Shown here piece by piece: positions 8,216 through 63,592 of a stretch of DNA of 64,000 bases. Made by a program: the position numbers and the translations under genes. Source of the DNA: an uncultured Alphaproteobacteria bacterium (GTDB lineage: Bacteria > Pseudomonadota > Alphaproteobacteria > Rhizobiales > Rhodomicrobiaceae); assembly GCA_963772335.1 (NCBI GenBank), contig CAVYXF010000001.1:1271853-1335852 (forward strand). Direction: 5' to 3'. The stretch's first letter is position 1. Every line of letters begins with the position of its first letter. The notes beneath the pieces are model-generated. The model did no database searches. It saw nothing but the letters and a program-made list of their open reading frames with translations, and was not told the origin of the DNA.

Positions 8216-9763
8216 CTATTCCATGACCTCGACAACACCGGCGGGTGCGCGGCGGGGCCCTTCCATCAGGAGCAGCAGCGGGATGACCGCTATCACTATC
8301 CACATCATGGCGCGGAAATCGTTGAGATAGCCGATGGTGGCGGCTTGGCTGGTGACGACCTGATTCAGCGCTGCCGCCCCCGCCGGGCTGTGCCAATCCC
8401 AGACATGAGGCAGCCAGGGCTGCTGCATAGCCGTGCGGAACGGCGTCAGATGCGCGGCAAGGCTCGAATGCACCACCTGCGTGGTCTGGGTCAGCATGGT
8501 GATCATCACCGAAATGCCGATCGAAGAGCCGATATTGCGCATAAGTGAGAACATCGCCGTGCCGTCATTGCGGTATTGCGGGTTGAGGGTGGCGAAGGTG
8601 ATAGTCGAGAGCGGCACGAACACGAAGCCGAGGCCAATGCCCTGGATGACGCCGGTGGTCACGATGGTCGCGATGCTCACGTCAGTGGTGAACCCCGCCA
8701 TCTGATGCAGCGCGACCGCCATCATGATGAAGCCGAACAGGATGAGGTAGCGCACATCCACCCGGCCGATCATCCGCCCGACGGCTATCATGGCGATCAT
8801 TGAGCCGATGCCGCGGGGGGCGAGCACCAGACCGGCGGTCACGACGGGAAAGCCCATCAGCTCCTGCAGGAAAGGCGGCAGCAGCGCCAGCGTCGCCAGC
8901 AGCACAATGCCGACGATGAAGATCATCGCGAGGCCCACCGCGAAATTACGGTCCTTGAACAGCGCCGGCCGCAGGAACGGGTTCCTCGCGGTGAACATCT
9001 GCACGAAGAACATGTAAAGGCAGACGGCGAAGACCGCGCCTTCGATGATGATCTCGGTCGAGGAGAACCAATCCTGGGACTGGCCGCGGTCGAGCATGAT
9101 CTGTAGCGCGCCAATCGAGAGGCTGAGGAGCGCAAAGCCGAACCAGTCAAAGGGCAGGCCCGGACGCTTCTCGGTCTCCGAGACGAACGCGATGATGCCG
9201 GCGAGCGCAAGGATGCCGACCGGCAGGTTGATATAGAAGGTCCAGCGCCAATCATAATATTCGGTGAGCCAGCCGCCGAGCGTCGGCCCGAGGATCGGCC
9301 CGAGCATGACGCCCAGCCCCCACATCGCCATCGCCGAGCCATGCTGCTCGCGCGGATAGGTGTCGAGCAGCACGGCCTGCGACAATGGCACGAGGCCGGC
9401 GCCGAATGCACCCTGCAGGAGACGGAAGATCACCATCTGCGGCAGCGACGTAGCCGCGCCGCAGAGCATGGAGGTGAGGGTGAAGCCGGCGACCGAGACG
9501 ATGAACAGCCGCTTGCGCCCGAAGCGCGCGGCCAAATACCCGGTCGGCGCGGTCATCACCGCGGCGGCGACGATATAGGAGGTCAGCACCCAGGAGATCT
9601 GGTCCTGGGTGGCCGACATCGAACCCTGCATATGGGGCAAGGCGACGTTGGCGATGGTCGTGTCCAGCGCCTGCATGATGGTCGCCAGCATGATCGGAAT
9701 GGTGGTGAGCAGTCGGTCGAGAGCCGTCGGCTCCGACCGGCCGGAGAGGGCCGCGGCAGTCAT
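8216..9763 (-). CDS. emrB: MFS drug efflux transporter, DHA2/EmrB-QacA family (14 TM)
   Basis: 515 aa with repeated TM helices and MFS signature motifs (GRKRLFIVS, LQGAFGAGLVP). It overlaps the upstream HlyD gene by 4 nt. Confidence 0.85.
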   Translation of the reverse strand: MTAAALSGRSEPTALDRLLTTIPIMLATIMQALDTTIANVALPHMQGSMSATQDQISWVLTSYIVAAAVMTAPTGYLAARFGRKRLFIVSVAGFTLTSMLCGAATSLPQMVIFRLLQGAFGAGLVPLSQAVLLDTYPREQHGSAMAMWGLGVMLGPILGPTLGGWLTEYYDWRWTFYINLPVGILALAGIIAFVSETEKRPGLPFDWFGFALLSLSIGALQIMLDRGQSQDWFSSTEIIIEGAVFAVCLYMFFVQMFTARNPFLRPALFKDRNFAVGLAMIFIVGIVLLATLALLPPFLQELMGFPVVTAGLVLAPRGIGSMIAMIAVGRMIGRVDVRYLILFGFIMMAVALHQMAGFTTDVSIATIVTTGVIQGIGLGFVFVPLSTITFATLNPQYRNDGTAMFSLMRNIGSSIGISVMITMLTQTTQVVHSSLAAHLTPFRTAMQQPWLPHVWDWHSPAGAAALNQVVTSQAATIGYLNDFRAMMWIVIAVIPLLLLMEGPRRAPAGVVEVME

Positions 9764-10950
9764 TTTGCGGTCTCGACGGTGCTGGCCTTGGCGGCCCCAT
9801 CGCCGAACCAGGACAGGGCGGTTTTGACGAGGCCCGGCAGCTCGCGCTGGTGGTGGGTGTCGATCTCAACCTCGGTGCTCATGCCGGCGCGCAGGATTTC
9901 GGCGTCCTGCGAGGCGTCAACCGCGATGCGCACGGGGATGCGCTGCACGACCTTCACCCAGTTGCCGGTGGCGTTCTGGGCTGGGATGACCGAAAACTCC
10001 GCGCCAGTCGCTGGCGCAAGACTCTTCACCGTGCCGTGCCAGACCTTGTCTGGATAGGTATCAACCCAGATGTCGACCTTCTGGCCAGGCTTGACGTAGG
10101 TCAGCTGGATTTCCTTGAAATTGGCATCGATCCAGAGGTTCTGCGCCGAGACCAGGCTCATCACCGCGCCGCCCGGGGCCACATATTGGCCGGGCTGCGG
10201 CAGGTTCGAGGCAACGCCGTCGAACGGCGCCTTGACGTTGGTGTGCGCAAGGTCAAGCTGGGCCTTATCCAGCGCGGCCTTGGCCTGGAGATATTGTGGA
10301 ATTGCCTCGACCGCGGTATCGGCGCTGCCGCCGAGCTTGGCGAGCGTGGTCTGCATGGCTTGGCTGTCGAGTACGACCTGCTGGCGCGCGGCATCGAGCG
10401 CGTTCTTGGTGTCGTCCAGCGTCTGCTGGGAGACCACGCTGTTTTTCTCCAGCGCTGCCTGCCGGTCGTATTTGCGCTGGGCGTAGTCGAAATTGATCTT
10501 GGCGAGTGCGAGGCTTTCCTGCTGCTGCTTGTAGGTTTCTTTCAGCGCGTTGAGGTCCTGAGCTGTTTCCGCGAGATTGGCCTTGGCCTGCTCGACGGCG
10601 ATCTCAAAGGGGCGGCGCTCGACATGGAACAGCACATCGCCCGCCTGCACATGCTGATTTTCATGCACGGCGACGTCGGAAATCGATCCGCTGATCTGCG
10701 GGCTGACCGCAACCATATCGGCCTGAACATAGGCGTTGTCGGTCTCGACATAGCGCCCGCCGGTGTAGTACCACCACGCGCCGCCGATGATCACGGCAAG
10801 CGGGCCGGCGATCAGCAGCAGCGGGCGCAGCCAGCGCCGCCGCGCTTTTGGTTTTACCGGTGTGAGAAGCACCGCAGGAGCTGCGGTCGCTGCCGGGTCG
10901 GCATCCTCGACCTCCGGCGCAAGGCCGGTTTCTGTGACTCTTTGGTCCAT
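9760..10950 (-). CDS. emrA: HlyD-family membrane fusion protein (EmrA-like)
   Basis: N-terminal single TM, coiled-coil segment, and a C-terminal beta-barrel/lipoyl-like region typical of EmrA/HlyD. Operonic with the MFS gene. Confidence 0.8.
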   Translation of the reverse strand: MDQRVTETGLAPEVEDADPAATAAPAVLLTPVKPKARRRWLRPLLLIAGPLAVIIGGAWWYYTGGRYVETDNAYVQADMVAVSPQISGSISDVAVHENQHVQAGDVLFHVERRPFEIAVEQAKANLAETAQDLNALKETYKQQQESLALAKINFDYAQRKYDRQAALEKNSVVSQQTLDDTKNALDAARQQVVLDSQAMQTTLAKLGGSADTAVEAIPQYLQAKAALDKAQLDLAHTNVKAPFDGVASNLPQPGQYVAPGGAVMSLVSAQNLWIDANFKEIQLTYVKPGQKVDIWVDTYPDKVWHGTVKSLAPATGAEFSVIPAQNATGNWVKVVQRIPVRIAVDASQDAEILRAGMSTEVEIDTHHQRELPGLVKTALSWFGDGAAKASTVETAK

Positions 10951-10960
10951 GGTTTTCGCT

Positions 10961-11446
10961 TCAGTCTTGTTCTGCTGGAAGGGCCTGGGGCAATTTCTTC
11001 GCCTCGGCCTCGCAATCGATCAGGTTCTGGCGCATGTGCTGCAGCGCCTCGACCATCATGGCCAGTGTCTCAGGGGGAAGCCCCGCAAGCGCATCGGCGC
11101 GGGTCTCGGCCGCCAGGTTCCACATCGTGTCGATGAGCGGCGCGGCCGTTGCGGTGAGATAGAGCTGCACCGCCCGGCGGTCGGCAGGATCGGGCCGGCG
11201 CTCGACCAGGCCCGCCTCTTCGAGGCGGTCGATCAGGCGGGCGAGCGAGATCGGCTGGATTTCCATCAGCTCCGCAAGCGTCGCCTGATTGATGCCTTCG
11301 CGGCGCGACAAATGCGCAAGTGTCTGCCACTGCGTCTCGGTCAGGCCGAGGTCGCGTGCGCGGCGCGTGAAATTGCGCCGCATCAGACGCGAGACGTCTT
11401 TCATCAGGAAGCCGATATTCTGTTCGGGGTCGCGCCTTGCGGCCAT
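10961..11446 (-). CDS. MarR-family transcriptional regulator (likely repressor of the efflux operon)
   Basis: 161 aa with a winged-helix region (LTETQWQTLAHLSRREGINQATLAELMEIQPISLARLIDRLEEAGLVERRPDPADRR). It is the first gene of the marR-hlyD-mfs operon. Confidence 0.8.
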   Translation of the reverse strand: MAARRDPEQNIGFLMKDVSRLMRRNFTRRARDLGLTETQWQTLAHLSRREGINQATLAELMEIQPISLARLIDRLEEAGLVERRPDPADRRAVQLYLTATAAPLIDTMWNLAAETRADALAGLPPETLAMMVEALQHMRQNLIDCEAEAKKLPQALPAEQD

Positions 11447-11470
11447 GACCTCCCCTCCGATTGCATACCA

Positions 11471-11485
11471 AGCTTATAGTAAGCT
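11471..11485. promoter_or_regulatory. Perfect inverted repeat AGCTTA-tag-TAAGCT in AT-rich promoter region upstream of marR; candidate MarR operator
   Basis: Seen directly in the sequence. 6-bp arms with a 3-bp spacer, embedded in the only AT-rich stretch, 25 bp upstream of the marR start. Confidence 0.3.
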
Positions 11486-11808
11486 ACATATATTATATAT
11501 TGCGCTTACATTCAAGCGACCGCTGGATCGCCGCCTTGGCTGTTCCGGCCTGATGGGAGGAGAGAGATGGGCCTAGACAAGGGGAAGGAATCACTGAGGC
11601 TTGGGACAGCTGCGTCAGCAGTCCAGCCTATTGAGATGCGGCATGAAAAGAAGTTTTGGCTTGATGATTATGATCTTTGAGCTTAACCAGCAGCTTTACA
11701 TTATCCGAGTTAAAGCAATGTACTCGTAGCGATGCGTGGAAGCGGCGGAAGAATGACCGCGCCGGCTAATACCCCGCGGGCGGATTGTGTGTTGAAGGAT
11801 TTGATCCC

Positions 11809-14226
11809 ATGCCCACTCCCTTTGTTCACGAGCAGATCAATTTCGCCGACTATCAGGTCAAGGATAACGAGTTCGCCCATCTCTCCCTGCGCGATCTGCT
11901 CGAAGCTCGGGACCTTTATCATGTACATTTGATGCGCCATCCCAACGTCGTTGCGACCGCGGTGGGGCGCTACCGGATTCGCAAAGGCGACAGCTGGCCC
12001 AACGATCCACACAAGCGCAAAGGCACAGGCGTGCGGCGGCTCGACAACTCCGAGATCCGCCCCTATTCCTGGCCTTGCATCCTGGTCTTCGTCGATCAGT
12101 GGGAAGACAAGAAGGCGTTCGCCGAACATCCCGAGGACATGGTGCCGAAGACCCTATTCACGCCGCAGGGCGGGAAGGTGCCGGTCTGCGTGGTCGAGGC
12201 ACCCCGGGAGACGGTCAGCGCGAGGGAGGCGCCCGATGTCCTCTACCCGCTGAACAATGTCGGCCCCGGACACCCGATCATCGCCCGTATCCAGGGCCGG
12301 GAATTCGTCGCAACAATTGCATGTCTGGTAAGCGACGGACACAAGGTCTATGCGCTAACCAACAGGCATGTGACGGGCAGCGGGGGCGAGGTGGTGTTCA
12401 CCGATCTCGGCGGCGTTCGCAAGCCGATCGGCACAAGCGCGGCAAAGCAGCTCGGCCTGGTGCCATTCTCTAAGCTCTATCCGAATTTCCCCGGCCGCGA
12501 CACCTTCGTGAACGTCGATGTCGGCTTGATCGATCTCGACGATGTGACCGATTGGACCTCGAAAATCCGCGATCTTGGCGTGATGGGGCCGATGGCGGAC
12601 TTCAGCGCCGGCAGTATCTCGCTCTCGCTGATCGGCTGTCAGGTGCGGGGCATCGGAGCGGCGGGCGGCGATATGCGCGGTGAGATCCATGCGCTGTTCT
12701 ATCGCTATAAGGCGAGCGGCGGCTTTGAATATGTCGCGGACCTGTTCATCGGCCCGCGCAGCCCGCGCGAGGACCGGACGAAATATGAAGGTGACGACGC
12801 CCATTTCGACACGCTGCCCGGCGATTCCGGAACGCTCTGGCTGCTCGAGCCGATCGAGCCGGCCTCCGCCAGAAAGCCGGCAGCGAATAAGAAATCTGCA
12901 GAGAAGGAGGAGTGCAAGCTTCTGCCGCTCGCGGTGCAGTGGGGCCGGCATAGGCTTAATTCCGCGAGTGAGCATCCGGCGCAAAGCTTTGCCCTGGCGA
13001 CGCTGATCTCGCGCGTGTGCGCCGAGCTGGAGGTCGATATCATTCGCGACTGGAATGTCGACCAGACCGATACCTGGGGATCGATCGGGCATTACTCGAT
13101 TGCCAATCGCGCGCAATTCGCCCTGTCGGAGCGATTTCCCAAGCTGGTCGAGCTAGTGGCAAACAACGCATCTCTCATCAGTCACGACGATGCAACTATC
13201 CTCACTTCCAATTTCAAAGGCACGGGCAAGCAGCCGTTCGTCGCCATGGCGGATGTGCCGGACTTCTTCTGGAAGGCAGGCATTGCCAAGCAAGGCTTTG
13301 CCCGTGCGAATGAGAAACCGAACCACTTTGCCGATATGGACCAGCCGGGGCCGGACGGGCGCACGCTTCTCGACCTTACCAAGGACGACGACTTTATTGA
13401 TCCCGACAAATGGCAGGTCTTCTATGACAGCGTCACCGATGCTCTAAGCGGCGCGCCGATTTCACTCCAGCATCGAGGTCTTCTTCCGTTCCGGGTCTGG
13501 CAGATTTTCGACGACATGGTTGAATTCGCCAGCGACGGGGATGCCGCGCGATTCATCTGCGCGGCCGGGGTGCTGACCCACTATATCGGCGATGCCTGTC
13601 AGCCCCTGCACATCTCCTTCATGCATGATGGCGACCCGACGCGGCCGGTCGAAACCGTGATCACGAAAGGCGCGCATGCCGGGGAGACCAGATTGCACGC
13701 GCTTGGGGAAGGCGTTCACTCAGGCTATGAGGACGAGATGGTGAACGACAACCGCAAAGCGATCCTGGATGCACTCGCGAAGGTGCCGAAAACGGAAGAG
13801 TCCGAATGGATCAACAGCGGCTTTGCCGCTGCGCGCGAGACGATCCGGCTGATGCGCCGAACCGTCAAGACCATTGCGCCGCGTGATTTGGTGGACGCCT
13901 ATGTCGCGGCGGGCGGCAAGACCAACAACAAGTCCGCGGCTGTGCTCTGGCGCGAATTCGGCCCCCGGACCATCAAGGTCATGAAGGATGGCACGCATTT
14001 GCTGGGTGTGCTGTGGGAGAGCGCCTGGGCGGCGGGCAATGGCGAGAAGCACGTCAAGGCAACCGCCCTTGTCGACGGTATGAGGATCGTCCGGGATGAC
14101 GGCTTTCTGCCCTCGATGACGATCAAGGATATCGGATCAATCCTGAAGCACCGCCCTCAATCCATAAGGACCGCGCCTGCTACGCCAGCACCGATCCCGG
14201 CGCTGGCGGAGGACACGGTCAGATAA
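11809..14226 (+). CDS. Fusion protein: N-terminal unknown region + chymotrypsin-fold serine protease domain + C-terminal S1/P1-nuclease / Zn-dependent phospholipase-C superfamily domain. No signal peptide.
   Basis: Protease triad in canonical order: His in YALTNRHVTG, Asp in NVDVGLIDLDD, Ser in LPGDSGTLW (GDSG). The C-terminal domain begins TWGSIGHYSIANRA (WGxxGH zinc-ligand start of S1/P1 nucleases) and carries HFADMD, HYIGDACQPLH and HSGYEDEM. The N-terminus is hydrophilic. Confidence 0.7.
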   Translation: MPTPFVHEQINFADYQVKDNEFAHLSLRDLLEARDLYHVHLMRHPNVVATAVGRYRIRKGDSWPNDPHKRKGTGVRRLDNSEIRPYSWPCILVFVDQWEDKKAFAEHPEDMVPKTLFTPQGGKVPVCVVEAPRETVSAREAPDVLYPLNNVGPGHPIIARIQGREFVATIACLVSDGHKVYALTNRHVTGSGGEVVFTDLGGVRKPIGTSAAKQLGLVPFSKLYPNFPGRDTFVNVDVGLIDLDDVTDWTSKIRDLGVMGPMADFSAGSISLSLIGCQVRGIGAAGGDMRGEIHALFYRYKASGGFEYVADLFIGPRSPREDRTKYEGDDAHFDTLPGDSGTLWLLEPIEPASARKPAANKKSAEKEECKLLPLAVQWGRHRLNSASEHPAQSFALATLISRVCAELEVDIIRDWNVDQTDTWGSIGHYSIANRAQFALSERFPKLVELVANNASLISHDDATILTSNFKGTGKQPFVAMADVPDFFWKAGIAKQGFARANEKPNHFADMDQPGPDGRTLLDLTKDDDFIDPDKWQVFYDSVTDALSGAPISLQHRGLLPFRVWQIFDDMVEFASDGDAARFICAAGVLTHYIGDACQPLHISFMHDGDPTRPVETVITKGAHAGETRLHALGEGVHSGYEDEMVNDNRKAILDALAKVPKTEESEWINSGFAAARETIRLMRRTVKTIAPRDLVDAYVAAGGKTNNKSAAVLWREFGPRTIKVMKDGTHLLGVLWESAWAAGNGEKHVKATALVDGMRIVRDDGFLPSMTIKDIGSILKHRPQSIRTAPATPAPIPALAEDTVR

Positions 14227-14230
14227 CGGC

Positions 14231-14509
14231 CTAAGCAGCGTTCCGGAGGGGGGTGGCGGGCTGGGCATTTGGCTCGGAGGCACTGCCCGCCAGCTCCGTC
14301 GTCTCGCGGAGCATCAGATAACCCTGCCGGTGGAAGCGCCAGCGGTCGGCGGGCTTCAGCGCGCCAAGCGCCCCGTACCCGTTGCCGGTCCAAGGGGCGG
14401 CGAGCCGGATTTCAAATGGCAGTCCCTCAAAACGGCCCTCGGCGAAAATCAGCAAAAGGGATTTGTCGCGCCCAGACCGGGCGAATTCGTAACGTTCGGA
14501 CATAAGCAC
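14231..14509 (-). CDS. Small hypothetical protein (~90 aa), convergent with the protease-nuclease gene
   Basis: GC-rich coding-like ORF with an AGGTG SD-like motif before GTG/ATG. It directly follows an AT-rich putative promoter region. No recognizable motif. Confidence 0.3.
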   Translation of the reverse strand: MLMSERYEFARSGRDKSLLLIFAEGRFEGLPFEIRLAAPWTGNGYGALGALKPADRWRFHRQGYLMLRETTELAGSASEPNAQPATPLRNAA

Positions 14510-14756
14510 CTGCCGGGAATTTTAGAACAAAAAGAGAACAACACAATTCTCTCCGGCTGTCAAACGGGAGTGTACGCGTCCTCGATAACGATCATAAAGG
14601 CGATAGGTTCCTTTATGGCGGATTAACAACTTACTGAGAAATTTAAGAAAATTTGATTTGCGCGCTGCGCAAAGGCTGGATGCAACGCGCGCTGCCAGCG
14701 ACGATCGCTCTCGACATTGAAAATCGGCGCTTGGTCGTTTGGCCCCGGAGCTCTTC

Positions 14757-15662
14757 TCATGGTGGAGCGAAGAAATTGATCAGTTCATCGGCTGTCTGTT
14801 GCGGTATTTCCTCGGCAAAGAAATGACCTCCTGGGAGTGCCGCTCCTCGCACATCGTGAGCCCAATCTCGCCACAAACCAAGTGGACCGCCGGCGTCTGA
14901 ATACCAGTCATTCAGGCCCCCCTGTTTGCTCCAAAGTACGAGAACGGGACAAACGATGCGCCGGCCTCCCGTTTGATCGCTAAGGTCATGCTCATGATCA
15001 ATTGTTGCGCCGGCTCGGTACTCTTCACAAATCGCGTGCACCCGTGCAGGATCACGCAGCTGTTCGACATAGGCCCTGTGGATCTCTGGACCGAACGCCT
15101 CCGACGCCGAACCCCAATTGCTAAGCGCATCCGAGATAACTGCCTCCGGAGCAGCGGAGAGAAGCTTTTCCGGTAGCGGCTCGGGCTGCGCCAGCAGGGA
15201 CCATGGCCAATAGCCGATGGTCAGCCTCTTATCGGCGCGCTTCCAGGCCTCGGCGATCGGAATGACGTCAAGAACGGCGAGCCGCTCGATCACGTCCGGG
15301 TGATCGAGGGCCATGCGGTAGGCCACTCGGCCGCCGCGATCATGCCCCGCGACCGAGAACCGCGAGAACCCAAGTTTTTCCATCATGGCAATCAAGGCCG
15401 CTGCCATTGCTCGCTTCGAAGCCTGGGCGTGATCCGGGCGAGAGACAGGAATGCCGCTACGGCCATAGCCGGGCAGATCGGCGCAGATGACTGTGAAGCT
15501 GCGGGAAAGCAGAGGCGCCACCGATCGCCACATGAGATGCGTCTGCGGAAAGCCGTGCAGCAAGAGGACGGGCCGGCCGGAGCCAAACCGGCGCAAGAAG
15601 ATGGTAGTCTCGCCGGCCAGCACTTCGACAGTTTCGAATTCGTCGAACGGTGGGAGGGTCAT
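14757..15662 (-). CDS. Alpha/beta hydrolase, haloacetate/fluoroacetate dehalogenase-like (epoxide hydrolase family)
   Basis: LLLHGFPQTHLMWRSVAPLL ... ADLPGYGRS ... VAGHDRGGRVAYRMALDHPD closely resembles DehH1/fluoroacetate dehalogenase (nucleophile Asp in HDRGG). Confidence 0.7.
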   Translation of the reverse strand: MTLPPFDEFETVEVLAGETTIFLRRFGSGRPVLLLHGFPQTHLMWRSVAPLLSRSFTVICADLPGYGRSGIPVSRPDHAQASKRAMAAALIAMMEKLGFSRFSVAGHDRGGRVAYRMALDHPDVIERLAVLDVIPIAEAWKRADKRLTIGYWPWSLLAQPEPLPEKLLSAAPEAVISDALSNWGSASEAFGPEIHRAYVEQLRDPARVHAICEEYRAGATIDHEHDLSDQTGGRRIVCPVLVLWSKQGGLNDWYSDAGGPLGLWRDWAHDVRGAALPGGHFFAEEIPQQTADELINFFAPP

Positions 15663-15820: not shown

Positions 15821-16381
15821 TCACAGCGCAACGCAGCAGAACGGCCCTTCGCGCACCGGCGAGGGCACCGCAAGGGCGGAGCAGGCTGCGACCATTCGCC
15901 CCTCCCGGCCCATGATCTCGTCCGCGAGCCGCACCAGGAGGCGGTTCGGCTTGGCGGGAGCGCTCGCCGCGCGCAAGCGCTGGGCAAGCTCGTCTTCGGC
16001 AATCTGCGGGCACAGCAGGCATAGCGCGATGAAGACCGCGGCCGGCGAGCGGCTAATGCCGGCATGACAATGGATGAGAAGCGGCGTGTCTTGGTCCCAG
16101 CCTTCGAGAAAATCGATGAGCTGATGGATGTGATCGGCGTCCGGCGCGATCAGCCCTTCGGCCGGATGATCGATATCGTTCATAATTAAACGCAGATGGT
16201 CTGCCGCCTGGAGATGCGCCGGTGTCACAATATCGGCCATCATCGGTCCATTGATGAGGGTAATGGCGCGCCGCGCGCCGACCTCTTCGGCTCTCTCGAG
16301 CGACCAGATCGGCCCGACAAAAATTTTGCCCGATCCCCTCACGCCTTTGCTCTCCATCAATTCCCGCAGCCTTTCGCCCAT
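15821..16381 (-). CDS. Protein tyrosine/dual-specificity phosphatase family protein
   Basis: CX5R P-loop HCHAGISRSPA. Confidence 0.6.
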   Translation of the reverse strand: MGERLRELMESKGVRGSGKIFVGPIWSLERAEEVGARRAITLINGPMMADIVTPAHLQAADHLRLIMNDIDHPAEGLIAPDADHIHQLIDFLEGWDQDTPLLIHCHAGISRSPAAVFIALCLLCPQIAEDELAQRLRAASAPAKPNRLLVRLADEIMGREGRMVAACSALAVPSPVREGPFCCVAL

Positions 16382-50114: not shown

Positions 50115-50609
50115 CTATCCTCCGCTGGCCAGGGAGCGGGTCTCCCCAGGGGCGATGGCCTCCTCCTCCAGCGCGATCGACTTCATGAGCGTGAGCACGC
50201 GTTCGCTCTCCAGGCGTTTGGCTTCAAAGCCGGTGGCATCGCCGAGATGGCCGAACAAATCCTCTCCCTCGCGCGAGCGGCCGATGAACGCCATCGACCA
50301 GGACGGGAACTGCCGCTGCGCGACCTTCTCGAACGCCAGTATGTGAACATCGCCGTGGCGGGGATCGCGCTGAATCTTTTCAAAGAGCGCCTCGATGCCC
50401 TGCTGCGGTCCTTCCAGCACCTGTGCAAAGATGCCGCTGTTAAAAACCAGCGCTCCGGTCAGCCCGAGAAGGGGATTGCTCCGCCGCGCCGCTGTGAGGA
50501 TATCGTCTATTTCCGTCGCGATGCCCGCAGCGCTGCCAGCGATGCGATTCCGGCTGAAGTAGACCAGCCGGTAGAGGTCTGGGCTCTCGCGTTGGGCCAT
50601 TTCGACCAT
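50115..50609 (-). CDS. BLUF-domain blue-light photoreceptor (short, stand-alone)
   Basis: YRLVYFSRN ... IDDILTAARRSNPLLGLTGALVFNSGIFAQVLEGPQQGIEALFEKIQRDPRHGDV is the canonical BLUF sequence (Tyr, Gln, Asn/Trp-Met region). Confidence 0.75.
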   Translation of the reverse strand: MVEMAQRESPDLYRLVYFSRNRIAGSAAGIATEIDDILTAARRSNPLLGLTGALVFNSGIFAQVLEGPQQGIEALFEKIQRDPRHGDVHILAFEKVAQRQFPSWSMAFIGRSREGEDLFGHLGDATGFEAKRLESERVLTLMKSIALEEEAIAPGETRSLASGG

Positions 50610-61571: not shown

Positions 61572-63095
61572 ATGACTGCCTTGCCAAGCGCAATTGACAC
61601 GAAATCGCCGCGCCAAGCGGTAACCGGGGAGGCTGCTCCAGGTATTGCGAGAGCCGAGGCGGAGGCCGTGAACGCGCGCGAGACGCGCTCGCTCTATGCA
61701 GCCCGCGAGCCGATCTATTCCAAGCTCGCCTCGGGAAAATTCCGGCGCATCAAATGGGCGGTGATGGGGGTCACGCTCGGCATCTATTATCTGCTGCCCT
61801 GGCTGCGCTGGAATCGCGGCCCGAACCTGCCCGATCAAGCCTTCCTGCTCGACTTCGCCCATCAGCGCCTCTATCTGTTCGGCGTCGAGATCTGGGCCCA
61901 GGAGCTGTATTTCATCACCGGCATCCTGATCCTATCGGCGCTGGCGCTGTTCCTCGTTACTGCGCTCGCCGGCCGCGTCTGGTGCGGCTATGCCTGTCCG
62001 CAGACGGTGTGGACCGACCTGATGATTGCGGTGGAGCGCTTCTGGCAGGGCGACCGCAATGCGCGGATGCGTCTCGCCAAGGCGCCATGGAGCTTCGAGA
62101 AAGTCTGGAAGCTGGGCGTCACCCATCTTTCCTGGCTGGGGATTGCGCTCGCAACGGGCGGCGCCTTCGTCTTCTATTTCCGTGACGCGCCGACGCTCGC
62201 TTATGAGTTTCTCACCTTCGACGCTCCGGCGATCTCCTATGTGTTCCTCGGCGTTTTCACCGGCACGACTTATCTCCTCGGCGGCATCGCCCGCGAACAG
62301 GTCTGCACCTATATGTGCCCGTGGCCGCGCATCCAGGGCGCCATGTTCGATGCCGACTCCTTGCTGATCACCTATCGCGGCTTCCGCGGCGAGCCACGCG
62401 GTCCGCACAAGAAGGGCGAGAGCTGGGAAGGACGGGGCGATTGCATCGACTGCAAGCAGTGCGTGGCGGTCTGCCCGATGGGCATCGACATCCGCCATGG
62501 GCCGCAGCTCGAATGCATCCAGTGCGCCCTGTGTATCGATGCGTGCGACGAAATCATGGACAAGGTCGGACGCCCCCGGAAACTGATCGCTTACGATACC
62601 TTTCGCAATCTGGAAGCCGAGAGCCACGGCGACCTCGCGCCGATCCGGCTGATCCGGCCGCGCACGATGCTTTACAGCGCGATGCTGGCGATCGTTGCGG
62701 CGGTGATGCTGCTCGCCTTCTCGCATAAGAGCGTGCTCGATGTGAATGTGCTGCGCGATCGCAATCCGCTTTATGTGCAGCTTGCCGATGGCGGCCTGCG
62801 CAACGGCTACACCATCAAGCTGCTCAACAAATCCTATGAGACGCGCAATTACCGCCTCTCCCTTGACGGCCTCCCAGGTGCGACGCTTACTATTGTCGGC
62901 GTGGAGAATGGAGCCCAGTCCAAACTGGCCGTCGCTCCCGACGATCTGCGCGCCGTCAAAGCCTATGTGATGCTGCCGCGCGATGCGGCGCGCCAGTTGC
63001 CTGCTGCGCAGAATGCGATGGCCTTTGTCATCGAAGACCTCAGCGCTGGCAGTCAGACCCGCCACCCGACCACCTTCCGGGGACCTGAGAAATGA
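61572..63095 (+). CDS. ccoG: cbb3 oxidase accessory 4Fe-4S ferredoxin-type membrane protein
   Basis: CGYACPQ ... CTYMCPWPR ... CIDCKQCVAVCP ... CIQCALCIDACD cysteine clusters. Confidence 0.9.
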   Translation: MTALPSAIDTKSPRQAVTGEAAPGIARAEAEAVNARETRSLYAAREPIYSKLASGKFRRIKWAVMGVTLGIYYLLPWLRWNRGPNLPDQAFLLDFAHQRLYLFGVEIWAQELYFITGILILSALALFLVTALAGRVWCGYACPQTVWTDLMIAVERFWQGDRNARMRLAKAPWSFEKVWKLGVTHLSWLGIALATGGAFVFYFRDAPTLAYEFLTFDAPAISYVFLGVFTGTTYLLGGIAREQVCTYMCPWPRIQGAMFDADSLLITYRGFRGEPRGPHKKGESWEGRGDCIDCKQCVAVCPMGIDIRHGPQLECIQCALCIDACDEIMDKVGRPRKLIAYDTFRNLEAESHGDLAPIRLIRPRTMLYSAMLAIVAAVMLLAFSHKSVLDVNVLRDRNPLYVQLADGGLRNGYTIKLLNKSYETRNYRLSLDGLPGATLTIVGVENGAQSKLAVAPDDLRAVKAYVMLPRDAARQLPAAQNAMAFVIEDLSAGSQTRHPTTFRGPEK

Positions 63096-63592
63096 CGGCC
63101 ATATCCATCAAAGAGCTCACGGGCAAGCATGTCCTCATCGTCTGTTTCGCGTTTTTCGGCGTCATGCTGGCGGTGAATAGCCTCTTCGTGTTCTATGCGG
63201 TCTCGACCTTTAATGGTGGCGAGGGCGGCAGGGCCTACCAGAAAGGGCTCGACTACAATCAGACCATTGCTGAGGCCCGCGCCCAGGATTCTCTCGGCTG
63301 GTCCTATTGGATCGAGGCCGGTATAGCCGGCCAAATCGCCATCGTGCTGAAGGACAAAGGCGGCGCGCCGGTCACGGGCCTGGTGCTCAGCGGCGAGATC
63401 GCACGGCCGGTCTCAGAGAAGTTTACCCGGGCGCTCACCTTCCGCGAGGCGAAGCCCGGCACCTATGCCGCTGACGTGGGACCTCTCAATGCCGGGAGCT
63501 GGATCGCAAGCTTTACGGCATTGCGTAGCGCCGAGGCAAAGGACATCGTCTACCGCGGCAAGGAGCGGTTATGGCTGAAGCCCAACTCTTAA
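63092..63592 (+). CDS. fixH: FixH/CcoH family protein
   Basis: Single N-terminal TM, ~165 aa, positioned between ccoG and the P-type ATPase. Confidence 0.7.
   Translation: MTAISIKELTGKHVLIVCFAFFGVMLAVNSLFVFYAVSTFNGGEGGRAYQKGLDYNQTIAEARAQDSLGWSYWIEAGIAGQIAIVLKDKGGAPVTGLVLSGEIARPVSEKFTRALTFREAKPGTYAADVGPLNAGSWIASFTALRSAEAKDIVYRGKERLWLKPNS

Follow-up and report, generated by a model that had tools for sequence, protein, structure and literature searches.

A NAL1-type serine protease fused to a zinc domain of the S1/P1-nuclease and phospholipase C fold in a single bacterial chain: a candidate cis-encoded zymogen

Enzymes of the S1/P1-nuclease/zinc-phospholipase C (PLC) superfamily have so far been studied only as secreted proteins, in which a zinc-binding tryptophan (Trp) is exposed through removal of a signal peptide or propeptide. 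A gene located in the 64,000-nt stretch of DNA analyzed here (the window; contig CAVYXF010000001.1 of an uncultured alphaproteobacterium of the Rhodomicrobiaceae) raises the question of how an enzyme of this kind could be activated in the cytoplasm, where it lies behind a second enzyme in the same chain. The coding sequence (11809..14226, plus strand, 805 amino acids plus stop, taken from the list of open reading frames, ORFs) joins a protease resembling rice NARROW LEAF 1 (NAL1) to a domain of the S1/P1-PLC superfamily. The gene and its two-enzyme architecture are real, and the first-pass annotation, made from the sequence alone, was right to find the architecture unusual: none of the papers searched describes a protease fused to an S1/P1-type domain, nor did that literature yield any cytoplasmic S1/P1-type enzyme. 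The motifs it had listed (NRHVTG, GDSGTLW, TWGSIGH, NHFADMD, HYIGDACQPLH and HSGYEDE) are all found in the translated ORF. It had also seen no signal peptide, and the N-terminus (MPTPFVHEQINFADYQVKDNEF...) indeed lacks a hydrophobic stretch; the secretion signal typical of S1/P1 enzymes is thus absent, a folded protease precedes the zinc domain, and a cytoplasmic location of the fusion protein is supported by the sequence. What appears to have been overlooked, judging by characterized relatives, is that the zinc-binding Trp must be N-terminal, which would make the fusion an activation gate.

The ORF ends at a stop codon at 14226 and can also be opened at an upstream TTG (11785), giving 813 amino acids. 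The earlier annotation had attached that length to 11809-14226; the ORF stands, and the length is 805. We favor the ATG at 11809 as the start because it is preceded by a Shine-Dalgarno-like GAAGGA, read from the sequence (11794..11799, plus strand, 9 nt 5' of the ATG), because the database gene call (P0001) is an 805-residue protein identical to the window's product, and because of the start positions of homologues. Residue numbers refer to the 805-residue frame, and the catalytic and junction codons were checked on the DNA.

The N-terminal half of the protein is, on sequence and model evidence, a complete NAL1-type serine protease with an intact catalytic triad. A search of Protein Data Bank sequences returned rice NAL1 chains as the sole meaningful relatives of the protease half, and a family profile matched NAL1 with an E value of 1.2e-16 over residues 89-399. 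A full-length AlphaFold2 model built on 35 homologues (predicted local distance difference test, pLDDT, 78.4) recovered NAL1 in Foldseek with an E value of 7.5e-20 over ~410 aligned columns and a template modeling (TM) score (target) of 0.62-0.75; 33 NAL1 chains matched at 7.5e-20 to 1.6e-16, and a 34th at 3.8e-14. As delimited by Foldseek and profile matches, the module spans residues ~25-415 (11881..13053, plus strand) and comprises all three parts of the NAL1 fold, namely the N-terminal domain, the two chymotrypsin-like barrels and the C-terminal subdomain, the barrel core being next most similar to alpha-lytic and Streptomyces griseus-type proteases. The ~150-residue N-terminal region formerly described as of unknown function is therefore the N-terminal domain of the NAL1 module, as Pfam and Foldseek both indicate. 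The Pfam families NAL1_N (PF25608) and Nal1_C (PF25819) match the window protein below threshold (21.8 bits for Nal1_C against a cutoff of 26.1), and the relatives scanned for PF25819 score 29.6-39.3 bits, many close homologues carrying a precomputed match to it.

The published NAL1 triad, H234/D291/S385, has its equivalent in H187/D237/S340, all encoded on the plus strand. In phmmer alignments His187 (NRHV, 12367..12369) pairs with H234 and Asp237 (FVNVDVG, 12517..12519) with D291, two residues spaced 57 positions apart in the NAL1 chain, and Ser340 (12826..12828) lies in GDSG. All three are invariant in the 36 diverse homologues (40-66% identity) on which invariance was judged throughout this work, and the motif G[DN]SG is present in 73 of the 74 homologues taken from fetched loci. 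Hence, the His and Ser first proposed, in NRHVTG and GDSGTLW, are the catalytic ones, and the Asp is D237 instead of one in GLIDLDD, the Asp residues of which are not invariant among the 36.

The same ~400-residue module superposes on rice NAL1 (7y77, 8pmg, 8has) with the triad aligned. The window protein differs in being bacterial and only ~23% identical, and whereas the NAL1 tail is disordered, its own protease is followed by a folded zinc enzyme. NAL1 forms a hexameric cage, its triad is competent only in the hexamer, and its N-terminal domain is needed for hexamerization. By analogy, the window protease is probably oligomeric as well, and the dependence of the NAL1 triad on the hexamer makes oligomerization a candidate switch for the window protein.

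The C-terminal half (residues 423-785; 13075..14163, plus strand) is a predicted trinuclear-zinc phosphoesterase domain with a beta-hairpin insert and a helical C-terminal extension, followed by a tail (residues 786-805; 14164..14223, plus strand) that has pLDDT below 50 and varies in length and sequence among homologues. Modeled alone from W423, the domain reaches a pLDDT of 89.7 and a predicted TM score (pTM) of 0.90 and adopts the all-alpha phospholipase-C/P1-nuclease fold. A fold search with this lone domain scored Clostridial alpha-toxin (1olp) at 16.8, Bacillus cereus PLC (1ah7) at 16.5, S1 nuclease (5fb9) and Listeria PlcB (8cqm) at 16.2, SmNuc1 (8qjl) at 15.8 and ENDO2 (3w52) at 14.8, the next match falling to 5.5. 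According to the model, the domain thus represents a third structural branch, equidistant from phospholipases and nucleases.

The predicted zinc ligands are W423, H428, D485 (or D482), H506, H591, D595, H601, H637 and E641, a nine-ligand trinuclear cluster that is invariant in the homologues, with H591 retained in at least 90%. HMMER places W423/H428, H591/D595/H601 and H637/E641 on the nuclease ligands, D485 (or D482) and H506 being assigned from motif alone. In the family-profile alignment WGxxGH falls on residues 1-6 of mature ENDO2, SmNuc1 and S1 nuclease, HYxGDxCQPLH on HFMGDIHQPLH, and VHsaYE on LHHIWD. Pfam S1-P1_nuclease (PF02265; 22.7 bits against a cutoff of 29.5, E 1e-4, residues 423-698) and Zn_dep_PLPC (PF00882; 16.8 bits against 26.8) both match below threshold; fold and zinc ligands alike agree with those of the zinc-dependent phospholipase C family PF00882. 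Despite the failed Pfam thresholds, membership of the protein in the NAL1 and PLC/P1 superfamilies is clear at the level of fold and ligands. Profiles, AlphaFold models and fold searches agree on the zinc domain with intact ligands that the first-pass annotation had recognized, and the structure prediction and fold search it had proposed as a check confirmed both folds.

Compared with the S1/P1 nucleases (Aspergillus oryzae S1, Penicillium citrinum P1, Arabidopsis ENDO2 and Stenotrophomonas maltophilia SmNuc1), which are secreted and in which Trp1 is exposed by signal-peptide removal, the window domain carries its Trp at residue 423 of a cytoplasmic chain, has ~150 extra residues and ends its ligand set with Glu instead of Asp. 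The Het-C/Tox-HET-C domains of polymorphic toxins likewise constitute a divergent, proposed branch of the PLC/S1-P1 fold with a metal site, put to toxin use; these, unlike the window protein, stand at the C-termini of secreted toxins exported via type II or type VI secretion systems or Photorhabdus virulence cassettes (PVC). Membership in Het-C was dropped, there being no Pfam Het-C match.

Whether the domain attacks nucleic acid or phospholipid is not settled by fold. The family profile matches S1/P1 nucleases only (ENDO2 5e-5, SmNuc1 0.002, S1 0.05, P1 0.14), with no PLC chain at E values up to 10; S1-P1_nuclease outscores Zn_dep_PLPC; and the W-x4-H spacing and the H-F-x-D motif follow the S1/P1 pattern, F81 and D83 forming the nucleoside-binding site in S1 nuclease. 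On these sequence grounds nucleic acid is somewhat more likely to be the substrate. Less likely, the domain would be a phospholipase C that attacks the cytoplasmic membrane from its inner leaflet: PC-PLC is the first Foldseek match for the zinc domain of the full-length model, phospholipase effectors occur in CARD-NLR systems, and the last ligand is Glu (H637-x3-E641) where the profile alignment has Asp in S1/P1 nucleases, a feature that is PLC-like, by comparison with the ligand set of B. cereus PLC.

In the characterized members of the PLC/P1-nuclease fold, residue 1 of the mature protein is Trp, the free amino group and carbonyl of which bind one zinc. W423 aligns with that residue, and the translation product therefore has no free N-terminal Trp, since the Trp is its residue 423. 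Methionine aminopeptidase leaves Met in place before a bulky residue such as Trp, so that a cytoplasmic protein can gain an N-terminal Trp only by endoproteolysis. How strictly the free N-terminus is required is illustrated by Listeria PC-PLC, which is made as an inactive proenzyme from which the protease Mpl removes a 26-residue propeptide, and which is inactivated by a single residue added before W1 (PMC10576769). With W423 internal, the full-length protein should hence be inactive as a phosphodiesterase.

The junction between both enzymes (N416-V-D-Q-T-D-T422/W423; 13054..13077, plus strand) is where we propose that cleavage occurs, between T422 and W423. Residues 415-423 have pLDDT below 50 in the full-length model, and the last conserved protease element before them is R-D-W415-N. 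The spacing from W415 to W423 is constant in 74 of 74 homologues from fetched loci, among which the residue preceding the Trp (cleavage position P1) is always Thr, Tyr or Ser and the one before it (P2) mostly Asp or Glu; the P2-P1 pairs are DT in 38, EY in 10, DY in 10 and YS in 4, besides others. The division into T-type and Y-type P1 residues tracks the deepest phylogenetic split of the family. A flexible linker of fixed length with a constrained P1 would look like a recognition site, as far as sequence and model can tell. A small or aromatic P1 is within the range of the alpha-lytic/SGPB protease group, and this group contains the nearest structural relatives of the window protease outside NAL1.

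No intact zinc domain without a protease was found, the shorter database entries inspected beginning mid-domain, like metagenomic fragments. Natural split versions (protease-only or zinc-only) were consequently discarded, the short entries inspected being mid-domain fragments or truncated or chimeric variants. Two metagenomic entries merit description. P0271 (583 amino acids) has an N-terminal DUF4062 (E 6.5e-24) followed by a NAL1-like module whose catalytic His and Ser have given way to other residues (SLRT, GNDG); its zinc domain is missing after a vestigial 'DWATRFH'; to judge from its sequence, it looks like a pseudo-protease variant with a defense-associated N-terminal domain. P0211 (906 amino acids) combines an intact protease with a zinc domain that is kept only in its first half, up to and including NHFADMD, and then continues into Methyltransf_25 (an S-adenosylmethionine-dependent methyltransferase; E 4.9e-6).

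An internal W423 downstream of a fused protease leads us to propose a built-in activation gate, that is, a cis-encoded zymogen in which phosphodiesterase activity would depend on a cut made by the protease just before W423, a reading that we hold to be evenly balanced between true and false. The full-length polypeptide would be a pro-enzyme with its phosphodiesterase off. The NAL1-type module would then cut the [D/E]-[T/Y/S]/W-G junction, either in cis or between the subunits of an oligomer; a cut in trans within the oligomer seems the more plausible because the junction is short. Cleavage would yield the N-terminal Trp, complete the zinc site and uncover the cleft, and the freed domain could go on to attack a substrate in the cytoplasm, nucleic acid being somewhat more probable than phospholipid. 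The trigger may be oligomerization, by analogy with the NAL1 hexamer and with the HamA protease of Hachiman, and the newly exposed Trp could act as a ClpS-type N-degron that limits the lifetime of the activated enzyme. The two folds, their catalytic residues, the equivalence of W423 to Trp1, the constant junction and the stand-alone gene are observed features; cleavage, the fused protease as its agent, the substrate and the trigger are what we infer from them. There are precedents in Hachiman and AVAST, where trypsin-like proteases activate pro-nucleases by site-specific cleavage and the HamA protease is itself activated by oligomerization (PMC12799240).

Several points weigh against such a zymogen. 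The pTM of the full-length model is only 0.55, leaving the inter-domain arrangement uncertain. The junction lies ~7 residues past the last conserved protease element and may be too short for a cut in cis, and the reported NAL1 cuts (FZP H117 and H195) are unlike [DE]-[TYS]/W. Moreover, a constitutive self-activating cytoplasmic nuclease without an immunity gene would be lethal, so that a control step would be needed, and in a divergent branch an internal Trp might support a modified, for instance binuclear, site.

Among known systems, the closest working likeness to the proposed zymogen would be the Listeria proPC-PLC/Mpl pair, with the same fold and proposed Trp gate. There, Mpl is a separate secreted metalloprotease and activation is extracytoplasmic and pH-triggered, whereas in the window protein the protease is fused in cis and the 'propeptide', in place of 26 residues, is the 415-residue serine protease itself. 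In the Hachiman, AVAST, Lamassu and DRT pairs (HamM-HamA; Tuck et al. 2025), a trypsin-like protease cleaves an inactive nuclease into an active one under control of oligomerization. However, that nuclease has the metallo-beta-lactamase fold, is gated by internal insertions and is encoded by a separate gene, and the protease is fused to a sensor or defense protein inside known defense operons. The window domain has the PLC/P1-nuclease fold, and PADLOC and Pfam scans of neighbors revealed no embedding in Hachiman, AVAST, Lamassu, DRT or canu operons.

Caulobacter LypC is likewise a single chain with an N-terminal trypsin-like peptidase (~335 amino acids), a flexible linker and a C-terminal endonuclease, and the window protein shares with CARD-NLR systems the trait of an effector fused to a trypsin-like protease. 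LypC, in contrast, requires an adjacent CARD-protease, LypA, and an NLR-like ATPase, LypB, and its nuclease uses a different His/Asn pair (H471, N505), its nuclease activity being dispensable. Neither a CARD protease nor an NLR-like/STAND ATPase is present in the window or recurs as a conserved neighbor across the fetched loci, and no STAND ATPase or second protease appears among the top 25 Pfam families of neighbors at 35 loci. Since its nuclease fold differs from those of HamM and LypC, no sensor genes adjoin it and its protease is fused in cis, the window protein belongs to none of the Listeria, Hachiman/AVAST or CARD-NLR systems. Rather, the full-length architecture is widespread in databases, unnamed and uncharacterized, and can be regarded as a variant of protease-activated hydrolase effectors.

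A conserved cytoplasmic branch of the superfamily, spread over more than 200 species across many phyla, thus appears to meet the Trp requirement by means of a cis-fused protease. If this is true, it constitutes a compact case in which a hydrolase that might kill the cell is gated by proteolysis, adds a new nuclease fold and a single-gene format to the theme of protease-activated pro-nucleases in bacterial immunity, offers a first way into the function of the bacterial relatives of NAL1, a plant protease of agronomic importance, and could supply synthetic biology with a small, self-contained protease-triggered nuclease or lipase switch.

The biological role of the gene is open to defense, maturation or intact-protein readings, and its distribution and neighborhoods bear on all of them. 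A total of 1901 database homologues were found, the best 120 mostly full-length and 56-66% identical; clustering at 50% gave 1228 representative clusters, 321 of them at E values of 1e-30 or better. A relative is encoded in 225 of ~185,579 species genomes (~0.1%), mostly of soil bacteria, many with large genomes. The hosts include Bradyrhizobium, Rhizobium, Mesorhizobium, Devosia, Acidobacteriota and Gemmatimonadota, together with Bacteroidota, Planctomycetota, Verrucomicrobiota, Myxococcota, Deinococcales and Methylomirabilota. Measured against the query, one gammaproteobacterial copy reaches 62% identity and those from Deinococcales 54-55%, whereas some from Bradyrhizobium stop at 43-52%; gammaproteobacterial, verrucomicrobial and Deinococcales copies together span 54-62%. 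Identities so discordant with taxonomy point to an accessory, horizontally moving gene. A housekeeping core gene was accordingly rejected on the count of species, and the ubiquity in conserved context that would have spoken against the first-pass annotation did not materialize.

All-versus-all clustering of neighboring ORFs detected no conserved partner across the fetched loci, the largest cluster covering 5 loci and reflecting local Bradyrhizobium synteny. The four nearest ORFs at each of 35 loci (140 neighbors) were scanned against PADLOC and Pfam and proved mainly metabolic or transport-related (molybdopterin oxidoreductases, monooxygenases, transporters and cyclases), with sporadic defense matches (one DpdF, one PsyrT, generic cyclases and kinases). 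In Bradyrhizobium sp. 195, for instance, the homologue lies amid Nramp, MFS and cyclase genes. The same scan of the window's own proteins revealed no defense genes, only ABC-ATPase cross-matches. These scans do not support a defense-island context, nor is the variable-island setting anticipated for homologues supported.

Some individual loci do deviate from this picture. The most defense- or mobile-like context among those seen is that of the Sphingobium fuliginis conjugative plasmid p1 (L085, 4777-12383), where the homologue is bordered on one side by a ParDE toxin-antitoxin pair and a dGTPase annotated as anti-phage, and on the other by a CYTH-domain gene and Tn7-like TniQ/TniB/Mu-transposase genes; in Ensifer canadensis it adjoins a recombinase and IS91. 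Of the five copies on plasmids, two are broken up into multiple coding sequences, two consecutive ones in Sinorhizobium sp. B11 p1 (L087, 6980-9330) and four in Neorhizobium galegae pNgVX (L088, 6983-9279), these being either decaying pseudogenes or assembly frameshift errors. A RidA-family gene lies ~0.5-0.6 kb upstream of the homologue in Ralstonia wenshanensis (L086, 5881-6348) and N. galegae (L088, 6110-6490), a proximity that may be due to chance and did not recur as a conserved arrangement at other loci.

A stand-alone anti-phage or abortive-infection effector, which would sense infection, activate itself and destroy nucleic acid or membrane lipid, is compatible with the proposed zymogen, to which it adds a specific function, and we rate it as rather unlikely, to the same degree as the phospholipase. 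All 36 diverse homologues match the PADLOC model PDLC03017 ('trypsin-like'; best E 1.7e-46), as does the window protein over protease residues 25-310 (E 2.6e-38). This match, however, covers only positions 11-256 of the 611 in the model, in the window protein and the 36 homologues alike, and no defense system is named for the model, which may derive from CARD-NLR operons. The layout resembles the trypsin-like-protease effector fusions of CARD-NLR operons and the protease-gated pro-nucleases, the distribution is patchy and taxonomy-discordant, one relative carries DUF4062, and the S. fuliginis and E. canadensis loci would suit such a role. Against it stand the lack of a conserved partner, the mainly metabolic or transport neighbors with only sporadic defense matches, the absence from the window of defense genes and of an adjacent CARD protease or NLR-like ATPase, the lack of any obvious sensor domain in the protein, and the absence of relatives from viral contigs. 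The PADLOC match and the patchy distribution are thus compatible with the defense or stress-effector candidate put forward at first, whereas island context and a partner ORF are not borne out, and guilt by association leaves the defense framing largely unsupported. Phage origin was also rejected, no relative having been found in viral contigs and the fold matches in BFVD being generic viral chymotrypsin-like proteases.

Somewhat less probable still is a sensorless death or immunity module in one polypeptide, in which a NAL1-like cage would detect its trigger, for example a phage protein or a stress-induced change driving hexamerization, cut itself and free a three-zinc nuclease or phospholipase; if true, the S1/P1-PLC superfamily would gain its first member that is gated in cis and works in the cytoplasm, and the plant NAL1 protease fold would gain a bacterial relative that places it in a functional context.

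We give a similarly low rating to the idea that the protease constitutively matures a benign enzyme of the cytoplasm. Here, a single cut soon after folding would make the N-terminal Trp that secreted relatives owe to signal peptidase, and the freed single-strand-specific nuclease/3'-nucleotidase or other phosphodiesterase would take part in the salvage of nucleotides or phosphate or in turnover under stress. S1/P1 enzymes natively scavenge nucleotides and nucleosides (PMC5201275). The chromosomal neighborhoods are ordinary, with no immunity, antitoxin or sensor gene, and the hosts are mostly large-genome soil bacteria. The limit on methionine aminopeptidase, moreover, would explain a fused endoprotease with no conflict role. 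Yet a taxonomy-discordant presence in ~0.1% of species is odd for a salvage enzyme, a 415-residue cage-type protease is costly for one cut, and the NAL1 module is strictly conserved throughout, N-terminal domain included, which suggests regulated activity. Even a benign salvage nuclease would still show that an N-terminal Trp can be made without secretion.

The least probable reading is that no processing occurs. The uncut protein would then be a hydrolase with two functions, or its zinc domain would serve in binding or regulation for a protease with other substrates, much as plant NAL1 acts on transcription factors. In its favor, LypC needs its protease activity while its nuclease catalytic residues are dispensable (PMC13236601), and the zinc domain, as a divergent third branch, carries ~150 extra residues and scores below the gathering thresholds of S1-P1_nuclease and Zn_dep_PLPC, but nine ligand positions (near-)invariant at 40-66% identity, with Trp and His at the exact S1/P1 spacing, argue for a catalytic trinuclear site, and in this fold an N-terminal extension abolishes activity, as in Listeria PC-PLC (PMC10576769).

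The gene in the window does not form a demonstrable islet. Its 5' intergenic region (11447..11808), shared with a divergent MarR gene (10961-11446, minus strand), contains an AT-rich near-palindrome, tatagtaagctacatatattatatattgcgcttacat, at 11470-11510, just upstream of that gene. From its sequence and position this is probably the MarR operator/promoter of a marR-HlyD-MFS efflux operon (8216-11446), with a possible further effect, in this genome, on expression of the protease-nuclease gene. The drug-efflux operon reported beside the gene is indeed there, with the MarR gene upstream and the MFS/HlyD-type pair beyond. The flanks had been described as the only strongly AT-rich stretches; they are moderate (the lowest GC of any 200-nt segment is 0.49 on the 5' side and 0.455 on the 3' side, compared with 0.63 in the window as a whole), and the 64 kb contains seven stretches in which GC drops below 0.50. 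Searches for direct or inverted repeats flanking the gene found none, and the GC content of the gene (0.609) and of its third codon positions (GC3, 0.75) are near those of neighboring genes; a mobile islet was rejected on this basis, in an analysis that did not include a tRNA scan, and its supposed boundary because the 5' AT-rich flank reads as the MarR promoter/operator region. Non-unique AT flanks, missing repeats and a promoter-like 5' flank leave the discrete single-gene islet without demonstration. In the 362-nt 5' region no Rfam family reached its gathering score, so that a regulatory RNA there is unsupported, and scans for promoters and terminators gave nothing above chance, with no significant promoter match in that region.

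On the 3' side, 4 nt separate the stop codon of the gene from that of a convergent orphan ORF of 92 amino acids (14231..14509, minus strand), whose GC3 of 0.75 would fit a coding sequence. No family in Pfam, PADLOC or NCBIfam matches it, and tblastn finds it only in a contig identical to the window (L001) and in none of 80 homologous loci. This small ORF had been noted correctly, and a role as immunity or partner gene was rejected for want of a family match and of any copy at homologous loci; it is probably not part of the system. NCBIfam gave no meaningful match for the fusion protein either.

Elsewhere in the window, a 186-residue protein (15821-16381, minus strand) has weak, sub-threshold matches to dual-specificity/protein tyrosine phosphatase (PTP)-type phosphatases, including the polymorphic-toxin-associated Tc-R-P (E 1.8e-5). 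One window protein, not among the ten ORFs of 140-170 amino acids scanned individually, matches baeRF_family12 (E 1.8e-42) and Host_attach (E 4.7e-44); eRF1-like domains in bacteria attract interest in connection with conflict and translation-rescue systems. The window further encodes a stand-alone BLUF blue-light sensor (50118-50609, minus strand; E 3e-28), an EAL-domain protein, and cbb3-oxidase/FixH genes (63092-63589).

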